Shown: positions 18,836 through 48,395, counted from the first letter of the stretch. The stretch is 64,000 nt of DNA from Acidimicrobiia bacterium (GCA_016932695.1 JAFGCH010000081.1:15404-79403), one strand, 5' to 3'. Program-made: numbers and translations. The notes: generated by a model not told the origin, from the letters alone.

Positions 18836-18866
18836 ACCGGCGATGGTACCCCCGCGCCGGGGAGCA

Positions 18867-19508
18867 CTACTTGATGATCGACTGCCCCACCGCCAGGGTG
18901 AACACGCTGTCGCGGTACATGAACACTCCGCTGCTGGTGGCCAGGCTGATCACCTTGAAGTCGGTGGCGAAGGTGTCCCCGACGCCGACGGTGTAGGTCT
19001 GGCCGTCCACGGTCAGCACCGCCTTCTTCACTCCGCCTTCGTCGCGGATCTCCAAGAGCGACACCCGCTTCCCGCTCGGCTGGTCGCCGGTGGTGCTGGT
19101 GGTGCTGCCTCCGGAGGTCGTGGAGGTAGAGGTGGAGCTGGTGGAGGACGTGGTGCCGCCGCCGGTCGTGCTGCTGGTGGAACCGCCGGTGGTACTCGTA
19201 GTGGAACCATCCCCGCCGGTCGTCGTGGAGCCGTCGGGGAGGGTGGTGCTCGTCGGGCTGGTGACCAGAGGAGCGAAGGGATCGCGCGGTTGAGCGACGC
19301 GGAAGCCCCCCGCCGCCGGAATCGTACCGGCGGAGCCGCTCGGGCCCGCCGTCCCCGGGTCCGGGGCCCCGGGCAGACGCCCGTCTCCTCCCAGGGAAAG
19401 CACTCCCGAGGAGGCCATCAACCACACCGAGGTCCCCGCCGTTCCCACCAGCAGCACGGCCACCAGGATCGCTACGAAAGTGCGCCGCAAGGTCCCGCGT
19501 CCCATGTC
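18867..19508 (-). CDS. PilP-like pilus assembly protein: N-terminal signal/anchor, RDPF motif, Ser/Thr/Gly-rich linker and C-terminal beta domain; the real start is the internal MGRGTLRR
   Basis: MGRGTLRRTFVAILVAVLLVG (TM), QPRDPFAPL (PilP-type motif), about 70 aa of S/T/G repeats, then a conserved-looking about 70-aa C-terminal domain. It sits immediately downstream of pilO. Confidence 0.5.
   Translation of the reverse strand, partial: DMGRGTLRRTFVAILVAVLLVGTAGTSVWLMASSGVLSLGGDGRLPGAPDPGTAGPSGSAGTIPAAGGFRVAQPRDPFAPLVTSPTSTTLPDGSTTTGGDGSTTSTTGGSTSSTTGGGTTSSTSSTSTSTTSGGSTTSTTGDQPSGKRVSLLEIRDEGGVKKAVLTVDGQTYTVGVGDTFATDFKVISLATSSGVFMYRDSVFTLAVGQSIIK
19090..19290 (-). repeat. Low-complexity coding repeat (Ser/Thr/Gly-rich linker of the PilP-like protein)
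   Basis: Degenerate repeats of ggt/gga/gtg...acc triplets on the plus strand encode TTSTTGGSTSSTTGGG... in the minus frame. Confidence 0.5.
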
Positions 19509-20187
19509 AGGCCTCCGCGCTCGGGCCGGTGGTCGGCGGCACGGTGGAAGGGACGATCGTCGTCTGCGCCTCCGGCGCCATCTCTTGCTCGCCCGTGCCC
19601 TCACCGGTGTTGCCGGCGCCCCCGTCGTCCGGGAGGGGTTCCAGCGGCACCAGGTCGGCGAGGGTGTACAGCCGCAAGCTGAGGCTCGCCGACAGCGTGG
19701 TCGCCCCGGTCTCATCCTGGCCCGACGACACGGCGATGGCGTCCACCCGCACCAGCCGATCCATGTCCATGATCCCGAAGAGGAAGCCCAGCACCTCGAA
19801 GAAGTCCCCGTCGATGGTGGTAGCCACCGTGATCTGCCGCAGCTCGGAACCGGTGATCGCCACCGGCATGGCCGGCGCCAGGTTCAATAGCTGCACTCCG
19901 GTGGTGTCACAGAGGGCATACACGTCGTCGATGAACTCATCGAGTCGGGGTTGCGCCGGGATCAGGCTCTCCATCTGCCCGATGCCGGCTAGGTACTCGA
20001 CTTCGGCGTCCCGGATGGCCTGCAGCTGGGTCACCTGGGCCCGCAGCGCGGCTTCCTGCTGCTGCGCCGCGTCCAGGTCGTCGCGCGCCTCGGCGATGCG
20101 GCCGTTGCGCGGCGAGATGAGGAAGAACCACCAGGCCACCGCCAGCACCAGCGCCAAAACCAAGGTGAGGATCACCCAGCGGCGCAT
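19507..20187 (-). CDS. pilO: Type IV pilus assembly protein PilO
   Basis: N-terminal TM (WVILTLVLALVLAVAWWFF), coiled-coil (LDAAQQQEAALRAQVTQLQAI), then a PilO-type globular domain. The pilM-pilN-pilO order matches. Confidence 0.65.
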   Translation of the reverse strand: MRRWVILTLVLALVLAVAWWFFLISPRNGRIAEARDDLDAAQQQEAALRAQVTQLQAIRDAEVEYLAGIGQMESLIPAQPRLDEFIDDVYALCDTTGVQLLNLAPAMPVAITGSELRQITVATTIDGDFFEVLGFLFGIMDMDRLVRVDAIAVSSGQDETGATTLSASLSLRLYTLADLVPLEPLPDDGGAGNTGEGTGEQEMAPEAQTTIVPSTVPPTTGPSAEA

Positions 20188-20188
20188 G

Positions 20189-20803
20189 TCAGGGCACCTC
20201 CGGGATCAGCTCCTGGGCGCGGTCGGTGACCGCCCCCGCAGTGAGCGCCGCCGAGGAGCTGAAGTTGACCACCACCTCGTCGCCGATGGCGCTCTCCGAA
20301 GCCATACTCACCCAGGGCCCGGTGACACCGGCGAACCCGCCCGCGCCCAGGGTGCGCAGCCATTCCGAAACGTCCGGGAACTCGAAGGCCACTCCGGTGA
20401 AGGCGACCTGGCCCACCACCCCGCCGATCTGGCCCTCGATGATGCTCCCGTTGAACGACTCCATCCACACCCGCTCGGGAAGAAGCCGGGAGAGGTCGTT
20501 GAGGAAGATGCCCCAGTCGACGTCGTTGGCCAGCGCTTCCTGCACCAAGCCCGCCTTCGAGCGAAACTCCGCCTGCAATGCGGCGGCCTCCGCCAGTGAG
20601 GCCACCTCCTGCTCCAGGCCGGCGTTGACCTCCTGCTGCAGCTCGACGTCGGCCCGCGCTGCCGAAACACGGGTGTTCCAGTAGAACACCCCGGCCACCA
20701 GCACGAGCACGTACGCGATGGCGGCGAGTATCAACAGCCCAATGAGCCGCCGACGGGTTCTCTCTTCGGCGACCTCGGGGGGAAGCAGGTTGATGGGGCG
20801 CAC
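20189..20803 (-). CDS. pilN: Type IV pilus assembly protein PilN
   Basis: MRPINLLPPEV...RR then a TM segment, which is the hallmark PilN N-terminus (INLLP). It is about 200 aa and lies between pilM and pilO. Confidence 0.7.
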   Translation of the reverse strand: MRPINLLPPEVAEERTRRRLIGLLILAAIAYVLVLVAGVFYWNTRVSAARADVELQQEVNAGLEQEVASLAEAAALQAEFRSKAGLVQEALANDVDWGIFLNDLSRLLPERVWMESFNGSIIEGQIGGVVGQVAFTGVAFEFPDVSEWLRTLGAGGFAGVTGPWVSMASESAIGDEVVVNFSSSAALTAGAVTDRAQELIPEVP

Positions 20804-20806
20804 GCG

Positions 20807-21919
20807 TCAGTCCTCCCGAGCCACGTGGGCGAAGCGATTGCCGGGTGGGACCACGTAGCTCCCCCACAACGCCAGGCCCACCGCCGCCGGCAGCACGGGC
20901 TGCAGGTCGAGCAGCTGCGATTCGGTCATGTGCACCCGACCCACACTGACGTGGTCCAGGACCCGGACCGGCTCCACGCGCGTGCCCAGCGCCCGCGCCA
21001 CCCGGTTGGCCAGATGGGGAAGCCGCGCCCCGTTCCCCGACACCAGCAGGCGCTCCAGCGAATGCTCCCCCGCCTGGGTCAGGTAGTAGTTCACCGAGCC
21101 GCGGATCTCCTCGATCAGGCCGTCGGCCGTGCGGGTGAGCAGCCGGCGCAGCGCCGCTTGCTCGTCGTCGCCTTCGGGCAGGCCGGAGGGCACCACTCCC
21201 GCCACTCGCTTCTTCTCCTCGGCGTCCTCCCGACTGAGCGACGCCCCGGCCATGAGCGCTTCGGTGAACTGGTTTCCCCCGGTGGGCAGGATCCGGACGA
21301 AGCGGGTGATACCGCCGCGCACGACGGCGATCTGGGACATAGATGCCCCGATATCCAGGATTCCTTGGGGCCCGTCACCCCCCAGGGTGAGATCCGCCCC
21401 GAACGCCGCCCGCACTAAGCCGAAGGTCTGCAGGTCGATCGAGAGCACTTGCAGCCCGACCTTGCGCGCCACCCCCACCAGGGACTCCACCATCTCGCGC
21501 TGGGCCGCCACCACCAGTATGGAAAGCATGAGGTCGCCGTCGGGAGTGCCGAACTCCTCGAGCGGCACGTAGTCGAGCAGCGCCTCCTCGACCGGGATCG
21601 GGATGGCGTCCTGGACCTGGTACGGCAGGGCCTCGAGCAGCTCCTCCTCCTCCAGGTGAGGCACGTCGACCTGCCGGACGATCACCCGCTGGTTGGCGAT
21701 GCCCACCACAACCCGCTTGCGCGGCAGGCGATGGCGCTTCCACAGCGCGCTCACTGCCTCGGTAACGGCGCCCTGATCGACGACGTCGCCGCCCTGGACC
21801 GCTCCCGGCGGCAGCGGCATCTCGACGAACCGGCGCAGCACCGGAGTGGGCTTGCCGGTTTCGACTACGGCGGCCCGCACCGCCTCCGAGCCAATGTCGA
21901 GGCCGACCGCGATCGGCAT
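20807..21919 (-). CDS. pilM: Type IV pilus assembly ATPase-like protein PilM (actin fold); the real start is the internal MPIAVGLDIG
   Basis: VGLDIGSEAVRAAVV..., ...ILDIGASMSQIAVV.GG, N.YL and LLVSGNGARLP are PilM/FtsA-like motifs. It is followed by pilN. Confidence 0.8.
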   Translation of the reverse strand: MPIAVGLDIGSEAVRAAVVETGKPTPVLRRFVEMPLPPGAVQGGDVVDQGAVTEAVSALWKRHRLPRKRVVVGIANQRVIVRQVDVPHLEEEELLEALPYQVQDAIPIPVEEALLDYVPLEEFGTPDGDLMLSILVVAAQREMVESLVGVARKVGLQVLSIDLQTFGLVRAAFGADLTLGGDGPQGILDIGASMSQIAVVRGGITRFVRILPTGGNQFTEALMAGASLSREDAEEKKRVAGVVPSGLPEGDDEQAALRRLLTRTADGLIEEIRGSVNYYLTQAGEHSLERLLVSGNGARLPHLANRVARALGTRVEPVRVLDHVSVGRVHMTESQLLDLQPVLPAAVGLALWGSYVVPPGNRFAHVARED

Positions 21920-22080
21920 CACTCCTCCGTTGTGGCCGCCCGGGGCGGCTCCTCGCTCGATCACACCGTGGTAACTACACGGGTGTCAGGCAAAAGGCTA
22001 CACAACGGACCGCGCGCCTCCAAGGATCTGGGCTGATCCTGCCGAGCGCGGGCCGCGCGAGGACCGCGCGCCTAAGGTGG

Positions 22081-22851
22081 TCAGCCCAGGTACCAGCCGG
22101 CGATGGTCTCCCCCCAAGCCAGGGCCAGCGCGGCGCCGACGACCATAGCCGGGCCGAAAGGGATCGCATCCTTGCGCCCGGCCCGCCGGGTGACGAGCAG
22201 GCCCGCCGCCACCAGCCCTCCTACGGCAAAGGCGGCGAACGCCCCCACCGCCAGCACGCCCCAGGATCGATAGGCCAGCACCGCCCCCAGGAGCAGGCCC
22301 AGTTTCACGTCGCCGAACCCGAAGCCGCCCCGCGCCGCCAGGGCCACCAGGAAGAGCAGGGCGAAGTACGCCGCCGCTCCCCCGGCGGAGCGCGCCCAGG
22401 CCATGGGTTCTCCGTCCAGGAAAGCCGCCGCCCCCAGCAGCACCAGCGTCACCGCCGCCCCCGGCAGCAGGATGCGATCGGGGATCCGCTTGACGTCGAG
22501 ATCCGTCAGCGTCAGGGCGATGGCGACTGCGGCCGCCCACCAAAACGCCGGCAAGGCCCACGACGGCCCGAGCAGAAGGGCCAGGCCGGCGAAGGCAGCC
22601 CCCGTGCCGGCTTCCACGAACGGATAGCGCACCGAGATGCCGCTCCCGCAATCGCGGCACCGGCCTCGCAGCAAGAGCCAGGACAGCACCGGGATGTTGT
22701 CCCGGGCCCGGATCTCATGGCCGCACGCCGGGCAAGCCGACCGGGGGCGCACCACCGACTTCCGCAGGGGGACGCGATAGGCGACCACGTTGACGAACGA
22801 CCCGGCCACCAGGCCGAGCACCGCACCCACGATTGCCAGCCAACCTGTCAC
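22081..22851 (-). CDS. pilD: Prepilin peptidase (A24 family)
   Basis: The Cys-rich N-terminal zinc module (CPACG...CRDCG) follows N-terminal TMs, with multi-pass membrane helices and conserved Asp positions. It aligns to PilD/TadV. Confidence 0.85.
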   Translation of the reverse strand: MTGWLAIVGAVLGLVAGSFVNVVAYRVPLRKSVVRPRSACPACGHEIRARDNIPVLSWLLLRGRCRDCGSGISVRYPFVEAGTGAAFAGLALLLGPSWALPAFWWAAAVAIALTLTDLDVKRIPDRILLPGAAVTLVLLGAAAFLDGEPMAWARSAGGAAAYFALLFLVALAARGGFGFGDVKLGLLLGAVLAYRSWGVLAVGAFAAFAVGGLVAAGLLVTRRAGRKDAIPFGPAMVVGAALALAWGETIAGWYLG

Positions 22852-22964
22852 CGCCGGTCACCTCCTGCTCCGCTCGCCGGCTCGAGGCCCCCGTCTCACA
22901 GCATCGGACGTGCGAAGGCGAAGGTGAAGGGGTTGATGCCCGGCGGCCTGCCACGCCGGCCGGG

Positions 22965-23432: not shown

Positions 23433-23439
23433 GCGGGCT

Positions 23440-23465
23440 GGGGGCGGGCCGTCGGCCCGCCCCCA
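23440..23465 (-). terminator. Perfect 11-bp GC hairpin (GGGGGCGGGCC gac GGCCCGCCCCC) immediately 3' of pilin paralog 2
   Basis: Inverted repeat seen directly in the sequence. There is no U-tract, which is common for high-GC terminators. Confidence 0.45.
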
Positions 23466-23490
23466 GCAACTCGGTAGACGTTGGGTGTGC

Positions 23491-23955: not shown

Positions 23956-24066
23956 CTTGGAAACCTCCTCAGGTTTCTCGGTCCCGGACCGGGGGTTCCC
24001 GATCCGCAGGCTTTATCGGCCGCGCCGCGACGCTTCTTGAGCGGGTTGCGCACCCCCGAACGCGCC

Positions 24067-24091
24067 GCAGCCGGGCTCCCGGCCCGGCTGC
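24067..24091 (-). terminator. GC-rich hairpin (GCAGCCGGGC ...GCCCGGCUGC) 3' of pilC and 5' of the pilin gene promoter region
   Basis: Inverted repeat seen in the sequence, with no U-tract. Confidence 0.35.
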
Positions 24092-24110
24092 GGTTGCCTC
24101 GATGCTCCGC

Positions 24111-26962: not shown

Positions 26963-26964
26963 GC

Positions 26965-28635: not shown

Positions 28636-28808
28636 CGAGGGCTCCTCCGCAGTGGTCGACTACGGGGAGTGTCGGCAGGCGGCAGAGAGCCCTTGAGCCG
28701 GTTCGGGATCGGCGAGTCGTGCCCCCGGCGCGACCGGAAGCCGCGATACGCGCCCGCAACGCATCTCGACACGCCTGCCTCGGCAGCGTGATCTCAGCGC
28801 GCCCGGCG

Positions 28809-29582
28809 CTATTCGCCCGTCGCCGCCCGGCGCATCACCTCAATGGGCGCCGGCAGCCCCGTCCACCGCGTGAAGGAGAGGGCGCCTTGCGCCACCAGGT
28901 GATCCCACCCATCCGCTACCGGCAGCCCCCTCCCCCGGGCCAGGAGCACCGCCGGGCTGCCGCCCGGACGGCAGGGCAGGTCGTAGAGGCCGGCGCTCTC
29001 TTCCACCACTCCCGCGGGCAGGCTCTCCCCCTCGCGGCCCAGCGGGGTCGAATTCACCACCACCGCCCCCGGCAGCGGATCACCCCACGGGACCTCCTCG
29101 GCCTCGATCCCCAGCCGCCCGGCGAGCGCCGCCCCCGCCCCGGCGCGGCGGGCGGCGATGGCGAGGCGAGCGCCCCCTAAGGCGGCCAGGACGGCCGCGG
29201 CCGCACCGCCGGCCCCCAGCACCAGGACCGGGCTCCCGGCGGGTAGCCCGGCCGCAGCCCAGACCCCGGGAAGGGCGCCGGCATCGGTGTTGTCCCCCAC
29301 CACCTCCCCTTCCATCGCCCACAGAGTGTTCACCGCGCCGGCCCGGTGGGCCAGCGGCAGCAGCCGGTCGGCGGCCGCGGCGGCGACCCTCTTGTGCGGC
29401 ATGGTCACGTTCGCCCCGTGCAGCGCCCCCGACCGGATCTCGGCACACGCCCGGTAGACCCCCGCGGCGTCCACACGACGCGCCTCATACAGGCCCTCGA
29501 TGCCGACGGCTGCCAAGGCGGCGTTGTGCATGGCGGGCGAGGTCGAGTGGCCGACCGGGTCGCCCAGCAGCACGAGCCTCAC
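28809..29582 (-). CDS. aroE: Shikimate dehydrogenase
   Basis: VLLGDPVGHSTSPAMHNAAL...NVTMPHK...NTDA.G..GAGGAA are AroE motifs. Confidence 0.85.
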   Translation of the reverse strand: MRLVLLGDPVGHSTSPAMHNAALAAVGIEGLYEARRVDAAGVYRACAEIRSGALHGANVTMPHKRVAAAAADRLLPLAHRAGAVNTLWAMEGEVVGDNTDAGALPGVWAAAGLPAGSPVLVLGAGGAAAAVLAALGGARLAIAARRAGAGAALAGRLGIEAEEVPWGDPLPGAVVVNSTPLGREGESLPAGVVEESAGLYDLPCRPGGSPAVLLARGRGLPVADGWDHLVAQGALSFTRWTGLPAPIEVMRRAATGE

Positions 29583-36962: not shown

Positions 36963-38173
36963 GCCGCCACCTCCGCGATCGGCACCGTCTCCTCTTCACC
37001 ATCGGCCATGGCCCGCACCGTCACCCGCCCTTCGGCCCATTCCGCCCCCACCACCGCCGCCACCGCGGCGCCCCGCCGTCCCGCCACCTTGAACTGCGCC
37101 TTCACCGAACGCTCGCCGAGGTCCAGGTCGGCAGACACCCCGGCCGCCCGCAGCATGGCCACCAGGTCGAGGGCCTCGGCCCGCCGCCCCGGGTCGGCCA
37201 GCACCACGAACACCCCTAGGCTCCCCTCTCCCCCCTCCTCGGGCATGGCGGCCACGATCCGATCCACCCCCATCGCCAGGCCCACCCCGGGAATGGGCGG
37301 CCCGCCCAGCAACTCGGCGAGCGGGTCGTAGCGGCCGCCGCCTCCGAGGGCATCCTGCGCCGCGGTGTACGACCGGGCCTGGTACTCGAAGACGGTGCGG
37401 TTGTAGTAGTCCAGGCCCCGCACCAGCCGGGGGGCGATCTCGTACGGGATGCCCCGGCGCTCCAGCCCGAGGCGCACCGCGGCAAAGTGCGCCGCCGCCT
37501 CCGGCCCCAGGTGATCGAGGGTGGCCGGGGCCTCGGCTACCACCGCGACGTCGGCTTTGCTGTCGAGGACCCGCAGGGGATTGGTGTCCAAGCGCCGGCG
37601 GGAGTCCTCGGAGAGCAGATCGGCCCGCTCCGCCAGGTAGGCACGCAGCAGTTGCCGGTACTCGACCCGGTCCTCCGGGTCTCCCAGGGAGTTGAGCAGC
37701 ACCATCACCCCCCTGATGCCCAACTCCTCGAGCAGCCGGTAGCCCACCTCCACCACCTCGACGTCGGCATCGGGCGAGGGCTCGCCCAGGTACTCCACCC
37801 CGACCTGATAGAACTGCCGCCGCCGGCCCGCCTGGGGCTGCTCGTAACGAAACATGGGGCCGGAATAGGCGCACTTCAGCACCCCGGTCCGTCCCTCTTG
37901 CAGATAGGCGCGCACCACCGATGCGGTGGCCTCGGGTCGCAAGGTGAGGGCGCGGCCTGCCTTGTCGGTGAAGCTGTACATCTGCTTGGAGACGATCTCG
38001 GTCTCCTCCCCCACCCCGCGAGCGAACAACTCGGTCGCCTCGAAGAGCGGAGTCAGGGCCAGCCCGTAGCCGTAGCGCTCCGCCAGGGAATCGAAGGCGC
38101 GCAGCAAGCGGCGCCAAGCAGCCGACTCGGGCGGGAGCACATCGATGGTGCCCTTGGGGGCCCGAGTGGTCAC
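36944..38173 (-). CDS. hisS: Histidine--tRNA ligase; the ORF-track N-terminus is over-extended, and the likely start is the GTG at 38171-38173
   Basis: PKGTIDVLP, ...YGY..ALTPLFE..ELF.RGVGEETEIVSKQMY.F.DKAGR.LTLRPE.TA and GGGRYD are HisS motifs. Confidence 0.85.
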
Positions 38174-38817
38174 CGGGGCAGGCCCTGCAGGAAGGGGTTG
38201 GTAGCCAATTCCCGAGCCAGCGTAGTGGCCGGCCCGTGGCCCGGAAGCACGTCCGTCTCCTCCGGCAGCGGCAGGATGCGTTCGGCCATCGAACGCAGGA
38301 GCGTCCGGTAGTCGCCCCCCGGCAGATCGGTGCGCCCGATAGAACCGGCGAACAGGTGATCCCCGGAGAAGAGCACGCCCTCCTCCTCCATCCACAGGCA
38401 GCAGTGCCCCGGGGTGTGCCCCGGGGTGTGGATCACCCGGAAGCGAAGCCCGGCGACCTCGAGCTTGGCGCCGTGGGCGAGAGGCAAGTACTCGGCGGCC
38501 CCTTGGTAATCCCCGCCCCCCAGGCCGAGCAGCAGGCGAGCCTGCCCCTGCAGGTCCGCCGCCAACCACTCGTCGTCGGGGTGCAGGTGAGCCGCGATGC
38601 CGAACGCCGCCACCGTCGGTCCGGCGCCGCCCACGTGATCGAGGTGGCCGTGGGTGAGCAGCAGAGCGCGGGGCTCAACCCCGCTACGGCGCGCCACCTC
38701 GGCAATCGCGTCCGGGTCGGGCGGGGCGTCGATGATGACCCCCGGCCCGCCCTCCTCCACCGACACCACGTAGCAGTTGGTGGCGGCCAGCCAGAGCGGG
38801 GCGAACGCGATGTGCAC
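38170..38817 (-). CDS. MBL-fold metallo-hydrolase (glyoxalase II-like)
   Basis: LLLTHGHLDHVGG and HTPGHTPGH are metallo-beta-lactamase fold motifs. A homolog sits upstream of hisS in other actinobacteria. Confidence 0.75.
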   Translation of the reverse strand: MHIAFAPLWLAATNCYVVSVEEGGPGVIIDAPPDPDAIAEVARRSGVEPRALLLTHGHLDHVGGAGPTVAAFGIAAHLHPDDEWLAADLQGQARLLLGLGGGDYQGAAEYLPLAHGAKLEVAGLRFRVIHTPGHTPGHCCLWMEEEGVLFSGDHLFAGSIGRTDLPGGDYRTLLRSMAERILPLPEETDVLPGHGPATTLARELATNPFLQGLPR

Positions 38818-38862: not shown

Positions 38863-40203
38863 CTACAACTCGTCCCAGGCCACCACCACCGGCTGCACGA
38901 TGGTTCCGCCGAAGGGGCTGCTCAGCGGCCCGGAGTTGTTCAGGGTGGTGGTGCCGGCGATGTAGTTGCTGTCGATGTAGTCCGCAGGCGAGTCGCAGGC
39001 GTCCTCGGCCAGGAAGCTGCCCTCAGTCACGTGGGTGTGGCCGGTGCTCTCGAGCTGCTCGTGCGCCGCCAGGATCCCTCCCATATCCGGGTCGCCGGAG
39101 ATGTCGATGTCCCGGCCGGCGGCGACCAGCAGGCTGCTGCCCGGGAAGGGGCGCATCACCGGACTACCGGAGATGCTCACGTCGCCTCCGGTGATGGCCG
39201 GGCAAGTGCCTTTGCCCGCCACCAGCAGGGTCGTGTACCAAGGGGTCACCAGCGACCCCGTGTTGGAGGCCAGGTCCACAGAGCCCTGGTGCACGTAGTA
39301 GACCCCGTCGTGGGGAGTGCCCGAGGTCTGCTGCCACCGGGCTTCGAGGCGGGCGTCGCAGCAGCCGAGGAACTTCCACCCCCGGAAGGTGACGGTGGCG
39401 GTATCCGACGACAGCACGAACCCCGTGCAGGGAGTAGCGCCGGCGGTGTACCCCAGTGAGGAGTGGGCGGGCCCAGCCCTCACTGTGCCGTCGGGGCAGA
39501 GATCAAAGTGGCTGGTATGCCACAACTGCCGGGGATCAATCACCGGGATCTGCACGGCCGCCTGATTGCCCGGCGGCTGGCAGGAGGGGTCTTGGACTAC
39601 CGACCCGGTGACCTTCGCACCTCCGGAGGAGCTCATGCAGCCGTCGATGAAGGTGCTGCCGCCCACCTCGAGGTAGCCGTTGCTGTGCACCCCGACGGCG
39701 CTGCCGCCGAAGACGAGGGGATTGCCGATGAACTGCACCGGGCCCCCGGTCAGCACCCCGTAGCGCGCCTTCCAGCCGCCGAACAGTTCCGCGGAGCCGA
39801 GCCGCGCTTGCACCGCCCGCACCCGGCGCCCGTCGGCCTCCCGTCCCGGAACAAACCCCACGGCAAAGACGGCGCTGCTGCTGGTGGGGCGCACAATCAC
39901 GTACTCGCCGTTGAGCGTGATTGCCACCCCGGCCGAAGGCCGCGCATCGGCGGCTGCCACCACCCAGGCTCGGAGCGCCTCGGGCCCGGAGAACGTGTCG
40001 GGCATGGTCTCACCGGTCGTGAAGGAGGCATCGAGGTTCACCAGAGCCAACCCATGATCCAGGCCCGATTCCGCCACCTGGAGAGCCTGCTCCCACTGGG
40101 CGTCGGAGCGGGTGTTGCCCGTTTGTCGCAGCGAGCGCACGCTGACCACCGACGTCAGCAGGATCAGCGTCAGGCCCAGTAAAACCACCGCCACCACGGC
40201 CAT
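38863..40203 (-). CDS. Hypothetical secreted/membrane-anchored protein, last gene of the minor-pilin operon (candidate pilus tip/adhesin-associated); the real start is the internal MAVVAVVLLG
   Basis: N-terminal hydrophobic anchor without a canonical prepilin motif, a 446-aa Gly/Ser/Thr-rich beta-type sequence, and translational overlap/proximity with the upstream pseudopilin genes. Confidence 0.45.
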   Translation of the reverse strand: MAVVAVVLLGLTLILLTSVVSVRSLRQTGNTRSDAQWEQALQVAESGLDHGLALVNLDASFTTGETMPDTFSGPEALRAWVVAAADARPSAGVAITLNGEYVIVRPTSSSAVFAVGFVPGREADGRRVRAVQARLGSAELFGGWKARYGVLTGGPVQFIGNPLVFGGSAVGVHSNGYLEVGGSTFIDGCMSSSGGAKVTGSVVQDPSCQPPGNQAAVQIPVIDPRQLWHTSHFDLCPDGTVRAGPAHSSLGYTAGATPCTGFVLSSDTATVTFRGWKFLGCCDARLEARWQQTSGTPHDGVYYVHQGSVDLASNTGSLVTPWYTTLLVAGKGTCPAITGGDVSISGSPVMRPFPGSSLLVAAGRDIDISGDPDMGGILAAHEQLESTGHTHVTEGSFLAEDACDSPADYIDSNYIAGTTTLNNSGPLSSPFGGTIVQPVVVAWDEL

Positions 40204-40268
40204 GCCATCTTCCGAATGGCGCCGCCCGCAAGGGGTCCATCGGCTTCGCTGTGCCCAGGGTGCTGGTC

Positions 40269-40802
40269 TCACGGCACGTTCCTCAACGCGACTTCGAAGT
40301 CCAGCGTGCGCGCCCCGTCGCCGGGCCCGGCCACCCCCACGACTAGGTGCACAAAGGCCCGGGTGATCTGCGCCGGCAGCGTGCTGTCGTAGGAAAAGCG
40401 GGACTCGGCGCCCGAGAGGCCCCAGGCTTCCACCCGGCCTGCAGAGCTCCCCACCGTCCGCACGAGAGCGCCGCTCGAGTTGACCGACCACGTCACGACC
40501 TCCGCGGCAGGCATGACCGCGTCCCACTCGTAGTCGATCCAAACGCTGAAAGAGGCCGGGCCCGCGGCGGTGAACCGCCGCGCCTCCCTGACGTCCTTGG
40601 CCAACCGGCTCCGGGCGTCGCGCACCGCTTCCTGTGCGGCATCGTCGGCAGCTTGCACCTGCTCTACCCGGGTTGCTCCGACGAAGACGGAGACCATGGT
40701 GGTGGCGACCAGGGCCATCCCGGCCATAGCCAAGGCGAGTTCGACGAGAGTCAGCCCGGCAGCCTCCCGAGGGAAGAGGCGAATCCGGCGATTGAAACGC
40801 AT
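40269..40802 (-). CDS. Minor pilin / pseudopilin (prepilin-type N-terminal cleavage-methylation domain)
   Basis: ...PREAAG/LTLVELALAMAGMALVATTMVSVFV is a class III signal with Glu at +5. Confidence 0.6.
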   Translation of the reverse strand: MRFNRRIRLFPREAAGLTLVELALAMAGMALVATTMVSVFVGATRVEQVQAADDAAQEAVRDARSRLAKDVREARRFTAAGPASFSVWIDYEWDAVMPAAEVVTWSVNSSGALVRTVGSSAGRVEAWGLSGAESRFSYDSTLPAQITRAFVHLVVGVAGPGDGARTLDFEVALRNVP

Positions 40803-40886
40803 GGCGGCTTTCCGGTCGGAGCCGAGGTATTCATCGACCGGGAATGCACCCGGCTTGAACACCTGTGGCATTCGATTGGGCAACTC

Positions 40887-42218
40887 TCAGTTGCAGGTGC
40901 TCTCCGCTACCGGCAGCGGGCGCAGGCCGTCGAGTAGCGTTGCCGTCGGCAGAAGCCCGGCCGGGTACATCACGCTCCCCGCCGTCACCGCCACCCGACC
41001 CAGTCCGGCATCACCGCCCGCCACCAGGGCTCCCCGCCAGGGGTTGGTCCCCGACAGGGTGACACCCCCGTAGGGGGCATAGGCCACCCCCTGCCAGGCC
41101 CCATCCGTGCCGCCCAGGAGGACGAGAGCGCTCGAGGAGCTGCCGAAACCCACCACCCCACCCTGGGTGGCCGTCGCCAGTCGGTACTGCGCCCCGGGGC
41201 GGAACTCCACCACAGTATCCGAGACCAAGGACGCGGCATTCGAGTACACCGTAGAGCCGTCGCGCAGTCGAATCCCCTGGGTGGCGTACACCGGGCCAGC
41301 GCCGTCGATCGTCACCCCCCCGTAGAAGTCGATGCTCCCCGAGACGTACATGGGGGCGCTGATGGTGACGTTGGTGAACGACTGGTTCCCCGACAGCACC
41401 TGGCCCGTCTGCGCCGCTGCCCGCAGAGCGGAGCGCCAGTCCTCGATGGTCATGGTGTCGGGTAGGACGACCACCACGCCTCCGTTCTGCTCGATCACGC
41501 CGCCGACGTTGCTCGGCAACACGGTCGCCGTCCCCCCGGCCCGCACATCGCCGTCCACCACCGAGGTGCCGTCGGAGTAGTTGAAGTTCGTGTGCACCGA
41601 GGCCAGGTGCGAGGTACCTGGGGAGGTGAGAGTGGAGGCACCGCCGGTGAGCGCGGCATCGCCCGCGGCCACCACCGCGGCGTCGGGGAACACCACCGCA
41701 CCGGTGACGATGGCCCCTCCGGCCGACACGTCGGAGATCACAGTGGAAGCCTGGAAGGAACCCGGCGCCCCGTCTTCCTCCCAAGTCACCAGCACCAGCA
41801 CCCGTCGCAGGTCGGCGGTGAGGCGGGTGACGTAAGCCCAAGTGGTGAACGTGACCCCGCCGGCGGTCGCCACCGACTTGGGGGTCATCAGCCCTCCCTC
41901 GCACACCAGGAGGCTTTCGTCCCCCGGCAACCCGGCTTCCTGGCCGAGCAAGGCCTCGGCAACGGGATCGATGAGGGGCGCCGCAGCATCCACCGACGTC
42001 ATCGCCAGCGCGTTCCAGCTGAGCGCCCGAGCCTGCTCCATCCGCCCCACCAGGAGCGCGGTGGCTTCCTGGCGTAACCGGCTGTCTCGCGAGCTGCCGA
42101 TCACCGACCGCAGCGTGCCGGTGATCGCCGCTACCAGCACCGCGGCGAGCACGGACGCCACTACCAGCTCGATCAGGGAGAACCCGGATTCATCGCGGAT
42201 GCGCAAGGGCCGCCTCAT
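40887..42218 (-). CDS. Large (443 aa) prepilin-like minor pilin
   Basis: MRRPLRIRDESG/FSLIELVVASVLAAVLVAAI is a class III signal. The remainder is a Gly/Thr/Val-rich beta-repeat region. Confidence 0.6.
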   Translation of the reverse strand: MRRPLRIRDESGFSLIELVVASVLAAVLVAAITGTLRSVIGSSRDSRLRQEATALLVGRMEQARALSWNALAMTSVDAAAPLIDPVAEALLGQEAGLPGDESLLVCEGGLMTPKSVATAGGVTFTTWAYVTRLTADLRRVLVLVTWEEDGAPGSFQASTVISDVSAGGAIVTGAVVFPDAAVVAAGDAALTGGASTLTSPGTSHLASVHTNFNYSDGTSVVDGDVRAGGTATVLPSNVGGVIEQNGGVVVVLPDTMTIEDWRSALRAAAQTGQVLSGNQSFTNVTISAPMYVSGSIDFYGGVTIDGAGPVYATQGIRLRDGSTVYSNAASLVSDTVVEFRPGAQYRLATATQGGVVGFGSSSSALVLLGGTDGAWQGVAYAPYGGVTLSGTNPWRGALVAGGDAGLGRVAVTAGSVMYPAGLLPTATLLDGLRPLPVAESTCN

Positions 42219-42225
42219 GATCGCC

Positions 42226-43809
42226 TCACGGGCAAGAGCCCTCGGCCCAGCACGGCACGGGGATCTCCCGCCAGGCGGCGTAGTCCCACGAGTCGCCGAG
42301 GAGGGGGAAGAAGGGCGGGCGCAGGCCTTCGAGGCGCAGGTCGAAGTCGTAGTTGCGGGTGGTGAAATGAGCCGAGAGGTTGCCCGTCCTCACCTTGGCG
42401 ATGCCGCCGATGGTGTTGAGCGTCGAGTAGCTGGGGGTGACCAGGTTCCCGGACGTGCCGCAGTCGTAGGAGACCCCCAGGATCCCCCCCTGGCTGAGCA
42501 TGGCGCCGTAGACGTTGAGCACCCGGTCGCTGCCCACGGCGCTCGGGCTCAGGTACACCTCGTCGGAGGCGATGAGGCCCACCACGTCGCTCCCGTTGAG
42601 GCCGCTGGCGTAGGTGATGTCGCTGCCCACGATGAGGTTCTTGGGGGACCCCAGCGTCCCGGCATAGAAGGTGACCGCGCCTTTCACGGTTGCCGGCGCC
42701 GAGGGCCGCCCGATCACCAGGTGGGTGTCGGCCCAGACCACCCCGGTGGTAGGCAGGTCGTAGGTGCCCAAAAGGTTCCAGCTGGCGGTGTCGGACCTGA
42801 CCCACCACCACTCCTCGGTGGTGAGGCAGGAGGTGGAGTAGTTGCCGTAGGACACCCAGACCTTGATGCGGCCCCGGCCGGCCTCCACCAGAGGCTGCAC
42901 CAGGAAGGCTGTCGGGTTCTGGGTCAGGCCGAGGCCGGGGTTGTAGGTGCGGCTCAGGCACAGCCCGGTGCCGTTGCAGGCCACCTCGCGAATCACGTTG
43001 AGGTCGTCCCAGAAGGTGTCGAAGTCCAGCGGCTGGGGATAGGCGACCCGGATGTCGTTGTAGTCTCCGGTGGAGTCGTACCCCTCGGCCCCGTCGGCGA
43101 AGATGGGCGGGCCGTATCTCGAGTTCCGCCCGATGGCCCCCTCGGCATAGGCGTTCTTGTGCACCACGCCGATCGGGGACGAGGTCGAGAAATCCAGGTC
43201 GGCGCCGACGTAGACCTTGCCCCACAGGACCGCGCCGGCGCCGAAGCGCAGGTCCTCCTGCTGGAGGAAGGCGAACTCGGAGATCGCCTGGGGATGGATC
43301 TCGGCCGTGATCGCCCGGGTCCGCCCGAACTCCTCCTGAGTGGTGACGACCGTGAGGGTGAGGCCGGCCTCGCCTGCCGGCGGCTGCACCCCGATCAACG
43401 CCCCTACATCGTCGGCTTCCACCGCGGCCTCCCCGCCGAGGAGGGGATGGTGGAAGAACTCCGCCGCCGCCTCGTAGGTCCAGGTGCGGCAGTCCGGGTA
43501 CCAGGACTCCCCCGGCTGGACCACCAGGTTGTACTGCTCCGCCAGGGTGTCGGAGCAGCGGCGCGGCGCCTCCGCCTCGTCCACCCAGTGCAGGTAGAAG
43601 AGCGGGTCCATGGTCATCTTGGCCGCGTATCGCTCCAGCATGGCCTCGGCCGCCACCGCCAGGGTGTCCTGGCGCCGCAACAACTGGGCATCGCGGTACT
43701 CCTGCTGGGCATTGCGGAACACCAGGGTGACGATGAGCACCAACGCTCCTACCGCCAGCACCACCACGAGCATGGCGAAGCCCTGATCCCGTGCGTCGCG
43801 GCTAGGCAT
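42226..43809 (-). CDS. PilX-like minor pilin (527 aa)
   Basis: ...DQG/FAMLVVVLAVGALVLIVTLVF then NAQQEYRDAQLLRRQDTLAVAAEAMLE, resembling the PilX N-terminal domain, with a large C-terminal region. Confidence 0.6.
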   Translation of the reverse strand: MPSRDARDQGFAMLVVVLAVGALVLIVTLVFRNAQQEYRDAQLLRRQDTLAVAAEAMLERYAAKMTMDPLFYLHWVDEAEAPRRCSDTLAEQYNLVVQPGESWYPDCRTWTYEAAAEFFHHPLLGGEAAVEADDVGALIGVQPPAGEAGLTLTVVTTQEEFGRTRAITAEIHPQAISEFAFLQQEDLRFGAGAVLWGKVYVGADLDFSTSSPIGVVHKNAYAEGAIGRNSRYGPPIFADGAEGYDSTGDYNDIRVAYPQPLDFDTFWDDLNVIREVACNGTGLCLSRTYNPGLGLTQNPTAFLVQPLVEAGRGRIKVWVSYGNYSTSCLTTEEWWWVRSDTASWNLLGTYDLPTTGVVWADTHLVIGRPSAPATVKGAVTFYAGTLGSPKNLIVGSDITYASGLNGSDVVGLIASDEVYLSPSAVGSDRVLNVYGAMLSQGGILGVSYDCGTSGNLVTPSYSTLNTIGGIAKVRTGNLSAHFTTRNYDFDLRLEGLRPPFFPLLGDSWDYAAWREIPVPCWAEGSCP

Positions 43810-44458
43810 TGCGCAGGTTCACCTCCACCAGCAACTCGAAGGGCCCCTCAATCGTGGACACCCCCGGAGGGGCCGCCCGCAGGACGATGGTGACGATGGG
43901 GAAGTTGCACGCCGTCGCCCCCCCGCAGGACGGCACCGTGGTGCGCTCCAGCGGACTACCCGCCCACTTGCTGCCGGCGAACATGGCGGGCGTCGCCGCC
44001 ACCCGCTCCAGCAGTACCACGTCGTTGAAGGGCAAGGTCAGGTAGACCCAATTCGGCGCCGAAGCCGGGTCGGCGGCATAGCGGCGCACCCGCAACTGGC
44101 AGTACTCCCCGGCGCAGGCGGTGCGCTCGTACACGATCTTCTCGGGCCCGGGGAAGTCGTAACGGTCCGAGTAGAAGGTCAGGGCACTCTCGGCCAGGGA
44201 GGCGATGGCCGACATCGTGATTTGCGGGGCCTCGGCCGCTCGTAGTTCGGCGGCCATCTCGGTGACCACTTCCCTGGCCTGCACCTGCAGATCGGCCCGC
44301 TGCCGGGCGTCGGAGGCGTTCTGCCCCACCGCGTTGACTACCAGCACTACTGCACCCAGCACGAGGGTCGACAGGAAGGTGGCCACTCCCATCTCGACCA
44401 GGGTGAACCCCTGCTCGCCGCGAGCGGCACGCCGCAGGCGGGCGATCACGGGCACCAC
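43802..44458 (-). CDS. PilW-like minor pilin
   Basis: ...RGEQG/FTLVEMGVATFLSTLVLGAVVLVV is a class III signal, and the protein is 218 aa. Confidence 0.6.
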   Translation of the reverse strand: MVPVIARLRRAARGEQGFTLVEMGVATFLSTLVLGAVVLVVNAVGQNASDARQRADLQVQAREVVTEMAAELRAAEAPQITMSAIASLAESALTFYSDRYDFPGPEKIVYERTACAGEYCQLRVRRYAADPASAPNWVYLTLPFNDVVLLERVAATPAMFAGSKWAGSPLERTTVPSCGGATACNFPIVTIVLRAAPPGVSTIEGPFELLVEVNLRNA

Positions 44459-46014
44459 CCCCTGATCGACTTGAAGCGGTCCCGATTGGACCTCACCGAC
44501 AGGCGGCCCTCACCTTGGATCCGGCCGTTGGCCAGGCAGCGCTTGGCCACGTAGTAGTTGGCCGGGGGACCCACGAACGACGCCTCCCCTACCGAATTGG
44601 CGGGAAGCGCCGTCCAGGATTCGCTCAGCGTGCGCCGATAGACGAACTCGGCGCGCACTCCCGAACTGAGCACCCCGGTGCCCATCCCGGAAGGCCGGGT
44701 CAGCCAGAGCGCCACCCGGTCGACCTCCTCGGGATCGAAGCTAGCGGTGGCCGGTCCATGGCCCCAGGGGGTGGTGGCAGTAGCTCGGCACTCGCCGGCA
44801 ATGAGGTTGAGCACACTCCGGCCATCGGCGTCGGTCGGGCCGGTCACCGTCTGACCGCCCGGCAGCACCACCTCCACGGTGGCCCCGTTGACCGGACGGC
44901 CCGTGTTGTCGAAGACGGTGAAGGTGACCTGATGGGGAGCCGGCAGCGGGTCCTCCTCTCCGGGAGGGGTCACCGGGCTCAGGCTCACCGTCATCCGGTG
45001 GGCGGGATCGGGGTAGTCCTGAGGGATGTTGATGTACCCCGAGGTGAATGGCTCATAGCCGCTGGCCGTCACCGTCACCTCGTAGGCATCCGGGATCAGT
45101 CCGGAGACGGTGCCCACCCCGGCGGGGTAGGTGGTCTGCTGCCCACTGGGAGAGTGCCGCAGGCCGAGGGTGAAGTTGGTGATGGGCTCCTGGGTCTCCG
45201 CCGACTCGACCGTCACCACCAGGGAGGCCGGTCGGTACACCCGGAAGGCGGCCTCCCCGACCATGCCGATGCGCGCCTCCACCACGTTCTTACTCGCCAG
45301 CACATCGTCGGGATGGATGAGCCAGCCGGCGGCGTCGTCGGTCTGCACCGTCCACGTCCCCACCGTGATCGCCGGGAAGACCTGCACGGCATCGTGGGTG
45401 CCGGAACGGATCTCCGGCAAAGGGGGGCCGACGAGCTTCAGCGAGGGCAACTGCTGCTCACTGGGGGCGAAGGGCTCATGGGGGGCGATGGTGACCCGCA
45501 CGCTGGCCACCCCGTCGAGAGCTCCGATCCTCTCCGGGGCGATGATGGCGTCCATGATCACCGGCTGAGCTCCGGGGCTCAGCGGGGTCACCGACACCGT
45601 CACCACCTTGTAGTTCACCCCCGGGTCCCACACCCCAGGAGCTCCGTCGCCGCCGCCGGGCACGATGTCCAGTCCGGTGAGCGACCCGGCATAGCGCACC
45701 TCCACCTCGACGGTGTAGCGGTGGCCGGACATGTCCACCGTACGGGTCGGATCGAGCACCCCCGACGGCGTCAGCCCCGGCAGTCCGACGTCGTCGTAGG
45801 GCAGCGCCCGGATGGCCTCCATCTCCGATTGGGCCAGCTTCTCCGCCGCCGACACGTCTTCCGAGGCGCGGATGCTGTTTAGTGATGCCATGAGGGGTTG
45901 GATGCTCAAGATGAGGGCGATCGCCAGGATGGTGACCGCCACCATCGACTCCACTACACCGAAGCCGCCGTCGGCCGAACGCCGTCGGCACGTCAAAGCA
46001 GATCGCATGAGCAC
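44446..46014 (-). CDS. PilV-like minor pilin with a large C-terminal extension (522 aa)
   Basis: ...ADGG/FGVVESMVAVTILAIALILSI is a class III signal. The C-terminus has Ig-like/beta-sandwich-looking repeats (TVEVVLPGGQTVTGPTDADGRSV). Confidence 0.6.
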   Translation of the reverse strand: MLMRSALTCRRRSADGGFGVVESMVAVTILAIALILSIQPLMASLNSIRASEDVSAAEKLAQSEMEAIRALPYDDVGLPGLTPSGVLDPTRTVDMSGHRYTVEVEVRYAGSLTGLDIVPGGGDGAPGVWDPGVNYKVVTVSVTPLSPGAQPVIMDAIIAPERIGALDGVASVRVTIAPHEPFAPSEQQLPSLKLVGPPLPEIRSGTHDAVQVFPAITVGTWTVQTDDAAGWLIHPDDVLASKNVVEARIGMVGEAAFRVYRPASLVVTVESAETQEPITNFTLGLRHSPSGQQTTYPAGVGTVSGLIPDAYEVTVTASGYEPFTSGYINIPQDYPDPAHRMTVSLSPVTPPGEEDPLPAPHQVTFTVFDNTGRPVNGATVEVVLPGGQTVTGPTDADGRSVLNLIAGECRATATTPWGHGPATASFDPEEVDRVALWLTRPSGMGTGVLSSGVRAEFVYRRTLSESWTALPANSVGEASFVGPPANYYVAKRCLANGRIQGEGRLSVRSNRDRFKSIRGWCP

Positions 46015-46091: not shown

Positions 46092-48284
46092 TCAATCGGC
46101 CCCGGGGAACACCTGCCGGGCCTCGTAGACCCCCTCCACCCCGCGCACCTCGGCCAGAGCCCGGGCCAGGTCGTCCCGGGCCGACACTTCCACCTGGAAG
46201 CGGAGCACGGCGGTGCGCTCCCGCGTCAGGCGGGAAGAGGAGGCGGTGATGTCCAGACCGGTATCCCCCAGTGCCGAAGTCACGTCGCGCAGCAGGCGAG
46301 GCCGGTCCAGCGCCTCCACCTGGATCCAGACGGGGAAGGTGCCGGCTTGCTCCACCCCCCACTCCACCTCGACCATGCGCTCCACCCCCAGCGCCCCTAT
46401 GTTGGTGCAGTCGGCCCGGTGCACCGAGACCCCGCGGCCCACCGTTACGAAACCGACGATGTCGTCGCCGGGGACGGGGGCACAGCACCTGGCCAGCCGC
46501 ACCCACATGTCTTCCAGGCCCTCCACGATGATGCCCTTGCCCAGGGGCCGTTCCCGGGCCGGGGCCGGCAACTCGAAGCCCTCGGCCGGCTCCTCGGGCA
46601 TCTCGGCCTGGGGCCGCACCAGCCGCACCAGGCGGGCCACCACCGTGGCCGCCTGAGCCGAGCCGTCCCCTACTGCCTGGTAGAGGCTCTCCAGGTCGTG
46701 AAAGCCGAGCGACTCCGCCACCTGGGTCATCGCCTCGTCGCGCGCGGCCGCGCTCAGCCCCAGGCCCTCGCGCCGCAGCAATCGGGCCACTTGCTCCCGG
46801 CCCTCGGCCACCGCTACCTCGCGCCGCTCCCGCAGGAACCACTGCCGGATCTTGGCAGCCGCCCGGGTGGTGCGCACAAAGCCGAGCCAGTCGCGGCTGG
46901 GCCCGTGGTCCTCGGAACGAGAGGTCAGGATCTCCACGATATCCCCCGACTCGAGCCGGGTGCTGAGAGGCACCAGCCGCCCGTTGACCCGGGCCCCGGT
47001 GCAGCGGTGCCCCACCTCGGTGTGCACTGCATAAGCCAGGTCCACCGGGGTAGCCCCGCGCGGCAGGCTCTTGACGTCGCCCTTGGGGGTCAGCACGAAC
47101 ACCTCGTCCTGGTACAGGTCCAGCTTCAGGTTGGCCAGGAACTCCTCTGGGTTCTCGTACTCGTGGGGTAGGGCGCTGATGGAGCGCACCCCCTCGACGT
47201 CCTCGGGAGGCGTGCCCTCCTTGTAGACCCAGTGGGCGGCGATGCCCCGCTCCGCCCGCTCGTGCATCTCCTCGGTGCGGATCTGCACCTCGATCGGCTT
47301 GCGGTCGGGGCCCAGCACCGTGGTGTGCAGGCTCTGGTAGAGGTTGAACTTGGGCATGGCGATGTAGTCCTTGAACCGCCCCTGCACCGGCGGCCAGTGG
47401 GTGTGCACCAAGCCCAAGGCGGCGTAGCAGTCCGCCACCCGCTTGGTGATGACGCGGATGCCGATGAGGTCGTGGATCTCCTCGAAGCTGCGGCCGGCAT
47501 CGACCATCTTGCGGTAGATGGAGTAAGCGTGCTTGGGCCGCCCGGTCACCACGGCGACGATGTGCTCCTCGGCCAGCAGGCGCTCCACCTCGGCGATGAA
47601 CTCCTCGATGTAGGCGTCCCGCTTGGAGGCCCGAGTCCGCAGCAGCTCCTGGATCTCGGCGTGGCGCGGCGGGTAGAGGATGGCGAAGCAGCGGTCCTCG
47701 AGCTCGTGCTTGATGCGCTGCACCCCGAGTCGGTGAGCCAATGGGGCATAGATGTCCAGGGTCTGGGCGGCGATGCGCAGCTGCTTCTCCACCGGCAGGG
47801 CGTGCAAGGTGCGCACGTTGTGCAGGCGGTCGGCCAGCTTGATCAACAGCACCCGCACGTCGCGAGCCATGGCAATGACCATCTTGCGGATCGTGGCCGC
47901 CTGGGCTTCCTCGAGGTTGCTGAAGCGGATGCGGTCGAGCTTGGTAACCCCATCGATGAGGTCGGCCACCGTGTCGCCGAACTCCGCCCGCACCTCGTCG
48001 AGGGTGAGGTCGCTGTCCTCGAGGGCGTCGTGCAGCAGGGCGGCCGCCACGGTCTCGGCATCGAGCCCGTACCCCGCCAGGATGCGAGCCACGGCCAGGG
48101 GGTGAGTGATGTAGGGGTCGCCGGTGCGGCGCAGCTGGCCCCGGTGGGCCCGGGCCGCAACCGCATAGGCCCGAAGCAGCAGCCCGGTGTCCCCGTGCGG
48201 GAAGTGACGGCGGAACTCGGCCAGGACGGGCTCGAGCTCCGCGACGTCGGCGGCGTCGACTGCGGCAGGTTCGGGGTCGGTCAT
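46092..48284 (-). CDS. relA: Bifunctional (p)ppGpp synthetase/hydrolase RelA/SpoT family
   Basis: HD hydrolase domain (HRGQLRRTGDPYITHPLAVA...LLHDALED), synthetase domain, TGS and ACT regions, and a length of 730 aa. Confidence 0.9.
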   Translation of the reverse strand: MTDPEPAAVDAADVAELEPVLAEFRRHFPHGDTGLLLRAYAVAARAHRGQLRRTGDPYITHPLAVARILAGYGLDAETVAAALLHDALEDSDLTLDEVRAEFGDTVADLIDGVTKLDRIRFSNLEEAQAATIRKMVIAMARDVRVLLIKLADRLHNVRTLHALPVEKQLRIAAQTLDIYAPLAHRLGVQRIKHELEDRCFAILYPPRHAEIQELLRTRASKRDAYIEEFIAEVERLLAEEHIVAVVTGRPKHAYSIYRKMVDAGRSFEEIHDLIGIRVITKRVADCYAALGLVHTHWPPVQGRFKDYIAMPKFNLYQSLHTTVLGPDRKPIEVQIRTEEMHERAERGIAAHWVYKEGTPPEDVEGVRSISALPHEYENPEEFLANLKLDLYQDEVFVLTPKGDVKSLPRGATPVDLAYAVHTEVGHRCTGARVNGRLVPLSTRLESGDIVEILTSRSEDHGPSRDWLGFVRTTRAAAKIRQWFLRERREVAVAEGREQVARLLRREGLGLSAAARDEAMTQVAESLGFHDLESLYQAVGDGSAQAATVVARLVRLVRPQAEMPEEPAEGFELPAPARERPLGKGIIVEGLEDMWVRLARCCAPVPGDDIVGFVTVGRGVSVHRADCTNIGALGVERMVEVEWGVEQAGTFPVWIQVEALDRPRLLRDVTSALGDTGLDITASSSRLTRERTAVLRFQVEVSARDDLARALAEVRGVEGVYEARQVFPGAD

Positions 48285-48395
48285 CTTCCCTTACCCTCTC
48301 GACCCCGGGGCAGGGCTGGACCGGTGGCCGTCGGCAACGGCATCATCACGAGATTGTACGCCGGGCCGGCCGGGCGGCTTCCGGGGCGCAGGGCT

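Follow-up and report, generated by a model that had tools for sequence, protein, structure and literature searches.

We analysed a stretch of 64,000 nucleotides (nt) from an Acidimicrobiia bacterium (GCA_016932695.1 JAFGCH010000081.1:15404-79403), called here the window, in which an earlier note made from the sequence alone had pointed to an operon of six minor-pilin genes. ORF calling confirmed six consecutive, co-directional open reading frames (ORFs) on the minus strand at 38863-46014, between relA and a gene for a metallo-beta-lactamase (MBL)-fold hydrolase next to hisS, where the note had placed them, and we have named them genes A to F (Table 1). The order along the minus strand is relA, the six ORFs, the MBL-fold hydrolase, hisS, aspS and rarA. 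It is likely, in our view, that the block represents two self-contained core minor-pilin sets (tip or priming complexes), ABC and DEF, which would serve the retractile type IVa pilus (T4aP) machine encoded 10 kb away. The closest relatives of the window are metagenome-assembled genomes (MAGs) of uncultured Acidimicrobiia/Actinomycetota; for protein C, the protein search found a cluster with 100% identity, and an exact look-up in the contig index gave no match.

Genes A, C, D and F code for products of more than 440 amino acids (aa), so that the range of 440-530 aa given in the earlier note is right for four products rather than for the three it counted. The overlaps of 4-13 nt that it described between adjacent genes are found at three of the five junctions: A and B overlap by 13 nt, or by 4 nt (GTGA), B and C by 8 nt (ATGCCTAG), and E and F by 4 nt (GTGA, with the stop codon of E), provided that GTG 40272 is the start of F; GAGGAA lies eight nt upstream of this GTG. 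A spacer of 7 nt lies between C and D, and D and E are separated by 3 nt with the TTG start of E or by 84 nt with its ATG 40802. For gene E, ATG 40802, with GGAAAG ahead of it, seems more likely as the start than TTG 40883, and GTG 40272 appears to be the most likely start of gene F. The scan for promoters and terminators in the block performed no better than on shuffled sequence, and Rfam returned no RNA element inside or beside the block. Low G+C was considered as a sign of recent transfer and dropped, because the block (~0.69, in a window of ~70%, with 0.72 in the left flank) is similar to its right flank (0.67-0.72), which makes its G+C uninformative on transfer.

(Homologues of each product were gathered by protein searches and from 54 loci found via gene C, and aligned family by family.) All five prepilin motifs quoted in the earlier note are present and conserved in these alignments. 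Genes A (DGG/FGVVES), B (EQG/FTLVEM), D (ESG/FSLIEL) and E (REAAG/LTLVEL) combine a glycine at position -1, kept in 42/44, 48/48, 16/17 and 6/6 homologues, respectively, with a glutamate at position +5 (Glu5), kept in 44/44, 48/48, 17/17 and 6/6; in gene C (DQG/FAMLVV) the glycine is found in 56/56 homologues and the glutamate in 0/56. The sixth gene had been described as lacking a prepilin motif, which does not hold for the product that starts at GTG 40272: its leader runs into HSEDG/MAVVAVVLLGL, with the glycine in 29/29 homologues and the glutamate in 0/29. Because the leader from this start ends in an invariant glycine, gene F would have a class-III-like signal without Glu5, like C, and judging from the sequences all six products, not five, carry a signal of this class. 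Conservation of the motifs among the homologues is well beyond chance, and the fraction of apolar or small residues from position +1 to +21 is 0.94-1.00 in all six families. The combination of Gly(-1) with a missing Glu5 is known to mark the GspK/PilX cap subunit. The leaders are predicted to be cleaved after the glycine by the prepilin peptidase PilD.

Curated hidden Markov models are much less sensitive to these signals than the family alignments. The match to prepilin profiles that the earlier note looked for is obtained for D only, which passes both Pfam N_methyl (PF07963; 25.7 bits, cut-off 21.2) and TIGR02532 (19.8 bits, cut-off 16.3); A (14.1 bits) and B (17.2 bits) remain below the N_methyl cut-off of 21.2, and C, E and F are unmatched in the two scans. 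The B, C and F families also contain invariant cysteines (C115, C120, C178 and C184 in B), which would fit an extracytoplasmic location of these proteins.

Genes C and F appear to code for the Glu5-less cap pilins of the sets, of the PilX/GspK/ComZ type, as indicated by their predicted structures. The AlphaFold2 model of C, built from an alignment of 59 sequences (mean predicted local distance difference test, pLDDT, 87.5), shows an N-terminal helix of 63 residues, sheet strands at 136-175, short strands at 179-488 and a long last strand at 503-516, and the model of F repeats this plan with a helix of 60 residues, sheet strands at 116-169, a solenoid and a last strand at 450-468. The structure prediction that the earlier note had proposed thus returned, for the two products modelled, a pilin sheet together with a beta-solenoid, and ComZ (PDB 6QVI) is the best full-length structural match of both, the superposition being loose for C. 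The pseudopilins GspK, XcpX and GspI from type II secretion systems (T2SS) are also among the structural matches. In ComZ, a beta-solenoid is placed between the penultimate and last strands of a pseudopilin domain that resembles GspK (PMC6561018), and the order of elements in C and F (helix, sheet, solenoid, final strand) fits an insertion at the same place. The solenoids of the two predicted models are triangular and resemble those of ComZ and ice-binding proteins. Neither a beta-propeller nor a vWA domain, the marks of a PilY1/PilC tip adhesin, is seen in the model of F, so the PilY1-like factor that the earlier note expected as the sixth product is replaced by a pilin-like protein matching ComZ. 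The large C-terminal regions of the block, which had been proposed as novel modules, are likewise better described as ComZ/ice-binding-like solenoids in C and F, CarboxypepD_reg and Big_1 modules in A and a DUF7305 module in D.

Relatives of the caps are abundant, with 1,665 cluster representatives at 50% identity (E <= 1e-3), almost all of them unnamed. When each C- and F-family member was scanned against Pfam, essentially nothing came up; one distant relative of C touches PilX_N at E 0.009, below the cut-off, and one carries the JGI name "Tfp pilus assembly protein PilX".

Gene A seems to combine a PilV/GspI-like minor pilin core, approximately residues 18-165, with C-terminal immunoglobulin (Ig)-like modules. 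The first of them is a CarboxypepD_reg domain above its cut-off, and in the PDB the A-family profile picked up domains of NOMO, carboxypeptidase D and scaffoldin; the second, Big_1/invasin-like, is below its Pfam cut-off and has PDB profile matches to biofilm-associated surface proteins. Apart from such Ig-domain matches, the PDB matches of the A profile were confined to the N-terminal helix. Against NCBIfam, A gives weak matches to XpsI, PilV and HpsB, far below the cut-offs and driven by the helix. Gene D may be built in the same way, as a PilV-like core of ~165 aa with an appended C-terminal module, which is probably a beta-helix of the DUF7305 type. DUF7305 was matched in 6/18 members of the D family (best E 1.8e-6), one member has a weak match to bactofilin, and hhalign aligned D with F at 95% probability over residues 10-280 of D, reaching the start of the F solenoid. 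Short D orthologues of 165-180 aa in three loci end directly after the core, which is why we regard the module as a separable C-terminal graft. Genes B and E would be the minor pilins in the PilW/GspJ position. The B-family profile placed the predicted mature N-terminus at the first residue of pilin structures in the PDB, covering only the N-terminal helix, and the NCBIfam matches, weak and far below the cut-offs, were to PRK10557, GspH and HpsC for B and to XpsI for E. The V labels of A and D and the W labels of B and E are putative, drawn from gene order and size.

Since pairwise BLASTP among the six proteins found similarity at the N-termini only, a profile-profile comparison was needed, and it was made for all 15 pairs among the A to F families. 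The reciprocal best pairs are A-D (score 90.7; 97.2% in the profile comparison), C-F (92.6) and B-E (70.6); the last score is close to that of A-B (71.8), and the B-E alignment extends over the first 76 columns only. The organization of the genes in relatives also follows triads. The commonest order in the 54 loci found via C is relA-A-B-C-MBL, with ABC alone in most, and DEF is present in 5/54, after C in three (L004, L007 and L046) and before A in two (L010 and L011). In L055 (6056-9554), a distant C relative of 517 aa (E 7e-59) has amtB, a gene for a P-II protein and a two-component system as neighbours, yet it follows a CarboxypepD_reg protein of 455 aa and a protein of 184 aa: the same triad in an unrelated context. 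From how the genes travel across loci, we take the unit to be a three-gene cassette, which by its signals and domains consists of a Glu5-containing pilin with a module, a Glu5-containing pilin of ~200 aa and a solenoid cap without Glu5, in what would be the GspI-J-K/PilV-W-X order. The likeness to PilV, PilW and PilX seen in the earlier note stands, and its "two others" plus an adhesin factor are better understood as the remainder of two V-W-X triads. In a relative with ~70% identity (L001 3758-11548), ABC occurs twice in tandem, and the A and B genes of the first copy were called as one product of 734 aa, for which either a fusion or a frameshift could account.

Loci found via C cannot show empty sites, and for this reason metagenome contigs were also searched with the MBL hydrolase alone, which gave 45 loci showing both the C-terminus of relA and MBL. 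The two genes are 11-79 nt apart in 28/45, bearing out the claim that the block interrupts a conserved synteny; the impression from the C-found loci that the block is a plain part of that synteny was rejected on the same count. Homologues of ABC or DEF are held by 4/45 (L059 with DEF-DEF, L092 with DEF alone, L103 with ABC and L061 with a homologue of C). The D-E-F genes are found twice in tandem between relA and MBL at L059 3194-10000 and alone at L092 7131-10000, in both cases without ABC at the site. Another 2/45 (L086 1015-4990 and L105 6202-9883) have divergent triads in the gap, below tblastn detection, that are alike in their succession of sizes (664/205/503 aa and 611/about 340/451 aa), with the prepilin motifs GFTITEA, GISIVEL, GFSIVET and GMSLIEV. 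The remaining loci, mostly more distant, have other content between relA and MBL. As relatives hold nothing, ABC, DEF, ABC plus DEF or duplicates there, the relA-MBL junction can be considered a cassette hot spot. A further step, which we put forward as a tentative possibility, is that the junction is given over to the swapping of independent tip cassettes of three genes, each made up of a PilV-like pilin with an adhesin module, a PilW-like pilin and a solenoid cap in place of PilY1. Their gain, loss, duplication or exchange would re-programme what a single T4aP machine binds (surfaces, polysaccharide or DNA) in an actinobacterial lineage that lacks a cultured model. On the other side of relA, the secF-relA gap of the window (48285-48395) is ~110 nt long, and the apt-like phosphoribosyltransferase gene that separates secF and relA in the distant relative L002 (5046-5570) is absent from it.

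The machine that these sets would serve is encoded in the same window, ~10.2 kb from the block and with housekeeping genes between them, in agreement with the earlier description of an operon detached from the core pil locus. It is nested on the minus strand (17687-29582) between aroE (28809-29582) and aroC (17687-18949), and it codes for PilB, a PilT-like ATPase, PilC, two pilins, PilD, PilM, PilN and PilO; the pilin pair is a candidate for the major pilin and a second pilin. A T2SS adjacent to the block had been named as an observation that would speak against pili, and this set of proteins is of the pilus kind, with no secretin, GspC/L homologue or PilY1 seen among the window genes scanned, a scan that left some small ORFs outside. 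Just after pilO, an ORF of 282 aa (18867-19715) has no Pfam match and could be an unrecognized component of the machine. Surveys have reported T4aP genes in Acidimicrobiia (PMC12008989). Closer to the start of the window, a response regulator with a GGDEF domain, a putative diguanylate cyclase, is encoded at 1044-1973 (minus strand). Cyclic di-GMP often controls pili. An FMN riboswitch (RF00050; 880-1000, minus strand; 111.9 bits, the gathering score being 66.2) lies at the upstream (5') end of a minus-strand ORF that extends beyond the start of the window.

Table 1. Genes and predicted modules of the minor-pilin block, its neighbours and the T4aP machine in the window.
Feature	Coordinates	Strand	Details
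relA	46092-48284	minus	Upstream neighbour of block
Gene A	44446-46014	minus	522 aa; start GTG 46014 or ATG 46008
A, CarboxypepD_reg (PF13620) transthyretin/Ig-like beta-sandwich module	45016..45222	minus	Residues 265-333; 47.2 bits vs cut-off 32.3; E 2.8e-12
A, second Ig-like module (Big_1/invasin-like, PF02369)	44779..44934	minus	Residues 361-412; E 5e-5; 23.7 bits, below cut-off 34.9
Gene B	43802-44458	minus	218 aa, or 215 aa with start GTG 44449
Gene C	42226-43809	minus	527 aa
C, predicted beta-solenoid	42346..43275	minus	~Residues 179-488, between pilin sheet and last strand
Gene D	40887-42218	minus	443 aa
D, C-terminal module	40890..41723	minus	~Residues 166-443, ~280 aa; probably a beta-helix of DUF7305 type
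Gene E	40269-40802	minus	177 aa from ATG 40802; ORF reaches TTG 40883 (204 aa)
Gene F	38863-40272	minus	469 aa from GTG 40272; 446 aa from ATG 40203
F, predicted beta-solenoid	38935..39756	minus	~Residues 173-446, between pilin sheet and last strand
MBL-fold hydrolase	38170-38817	minus	Downstream neighbour of block
PilB	26965-28635	minus	T2SSE + MshEN E 6e-142
PilT-like ATPase	25340 to about 26560 (start approximate)	minus	T2SSE E 1.6e-45
PilC	24111-25343	minus	T2SSF E 1.2e-67
Two pilin genes	23491-23955 and 22965-23432	minus	N_methyl 27.1 and 21.5 bits vs cut-off 21.2
PilD prepilin peptidase	22081..22851	minus	A24_N_bact E 6.7e-34, Peptidase_A24 E 9.8e-12
PilM, PilN, PilO	19507..21964	minus	PilM_2 E 3.6e-43, PilN E 7.4e-7, PilO E 2.7e-8

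The signals and their conservation, the triad organization and the presence of the machine are observations, as are the modelled folds of C and F, and from them we infer the following way of working. Each product would be cut by PilD after the conserved glycine, and within the membrane the N-terminal helices of the three subunits of a set would come together as a bundle on the PilC/PilMNO platform, with the Glu5-less cap (C or F) on top; the cap is expected to be distal because nothing can be added above a subunit without Glu5. The trimer would then prime polymerization of the major pilin and stay at the pilus tip, where the solenoid, together with the Ig-like modules of A or the DUF7305 module of D, may form an exposed binding surface for a surface, polysaccharide or DNA. 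The solenoid could also plug the tip in place of the absent PilY1. ABC would be the conserved default set and DEF an accessory alternative tip.

Several results weigh against this interpretation. The C and F proteins of the window have no sequence-level link to ComZ, GspK or PilX: profile searches of the PDB with both families returned nothing relevant, and PilX_N (PF14341) leaves the two proteins unmatched and is weakly matched in 2/29 relatives of F (E 7e-4). D resembles F almost as strongly as A in the profile matrix, and since these two likenesses are so near each other the one-to-one paralogy of the triads is not clean. Moreover, the PilW/GspJ assignment of B and E derives only from order, size and the N-terminal helix, an adapter of the FimU/GspH kind was not identified in the block, and the whole data set consists of uncultured MAGs.

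Instead of two sets, the six proteins might form one larger tip complex on one kind of pilus, with V, W and X accompanied by three accessory pilins. The tight packing of six co-directional genes suggests co-transcription, the scan showed no terminator-like site between C and D, and D, which has Glu5 and a solenoid-like module related to that of F, could sit below a cap instead of being the PilV equivalent; however, ABC is alone in most relatives, the site can hold DEF with ABC missing and also DEF-DEF, DEF is found on either side of ABC, and two Glu5-less caps are set against a single distal end per filament, all of which makes one complex improbable. That the genes serve a non-retractile pseudopilus (a secretion piston as in the T2SS, or a competence structure of the ComG kind) and no surface type IV pilus is very unlikely, as a second ATPase of the PilT type is encoded nearby together with PilM, PilN and PilO, a set typical of retractile T4aP, and neither a secretin nor GspC/L was found among the window genes scanned. 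The Actinomycetota, the phylum of the host, are generally monoderm, and a classical T2SS is hence unexpected. What favours a pseudopilus are the structural matches to GspK, XcpX and GspI, the weak NCBIfam matches to XpsI, GspH and Hps pseudopilins, and the association of ComZ itself with competence (PMC6561018).

The last alternative, five pilins and a sixth, non-pilin secreted or anchored factor of the PilY1-like adhesin type, turns on the start of gene F. With ATG 40203 the product opens on a hydrophobic segment, and the Pfam and NCBIfam scans are blank for it; the upstream GTG, however, has the GTGA overlap and a ribosome-binding site, and the leader of 23 residues that it yields is conserved, with its Gly(-1), in 29/29 homologues; the database gives lengths of 458-470 aa for many of these. 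As the model of F moreover has the helix, sheet and solenoid of a ComZ match and no beta-propeller or vWA domain, we find such a factor hardly credible, and the reading of F as a plain anchored adhesin was considered and rejected.

Two core minor-pilin sets, the reading we prefer, have their closest parallels in Thermus and the cyanobacteria. In overall build, C and F are like ComZ of Thermus thermophilus, whose genes (pilA1-pilA2-pilA3-comZ-pilA4) also have smaller pilin genes ahead of the cap gene. ComZ binds the neighbouring pilin PilA2 and DNA, and it has been argued to sit at the tip (PMC6561018). Unlike in Thermus, the host here is an actinomycetote with no PilQ channel to cross and with two caps in one operon; the partner A, unlike PilA2, carries Ig-like modules, and sequence similarity of C and F to ComZ is undetectable. 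In cyanobacteria, two PilV/PilX sets ('Com' and 'EPS'), with a solenoid-bearing PilX, prime competence and motility pili, respectively, and the solenoid has been proposed to replace the PilY1 plug (bioRxiv 10.64898/2026.02.12.705559). The coexistence of two core minor-pilin sets, each with a solenoid cap, is the same here, and A, B and D have weak NCBIfam matches to HpsB and HpsC. The phylum and envelope are different, though, and the actinobacterial sets, known from genes alone, sit side by side in a single operon, at a hot spot with a fixed place in the chromosome.

Other systems are further away. In the T2SS trimer GspI-GspJ-GspK (PDB 3CI0), the insert of GspK is alpha-helical and located at a different position from the solenoid of C and F, and when compared with FimU-PilV-PilW-PilX of Pseudomonas, a FimU/GspH adapter and PilY1 are not found here, with equivalog scores far below the cut-offs. 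That large modular pilins are widespread was known before (PMC8179133). PilB and PilC of Streptococcus sanguinis are like A and D in having a small pilin module with a C-terminal functional graft, the grafts being vWA and lectin domains in S. sanguinis and CarboxypepD_reg/Big_1 Ig-like or DUF7305 modules here. Caldicellulosiruptor tapirins and the ice-binding-like adhesins with DUF3494 were also compared; the tapirins lie outside the pilins and lack both a class III signal and a pilin domain. Earlier descriptions exist of large modular pilins, of ComZ-like caps in Thermus and cyanobacteria and of paired minor-pilin sets. In the literature searched, we found no description of solenoid caps in Actinomycetota, of two sets in tandem, of PilV-like partners with Ig-like or DUF7305 modules, or of a cassette hot spot.

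The locus provides an annotated example of type IV pilus equipment in an uncultured actinobacterial lineage. Current ideas are not overturned by it; rather, the picture drawn from ComZ and the cyanobacterial PilX is extended to another phylum. Naming the cap family PilX/ComZ-like would improve the annotation of many metagenomes, and the variation of cassettes at one site amounts to a natural experiment on the specificity of the pilus tip.

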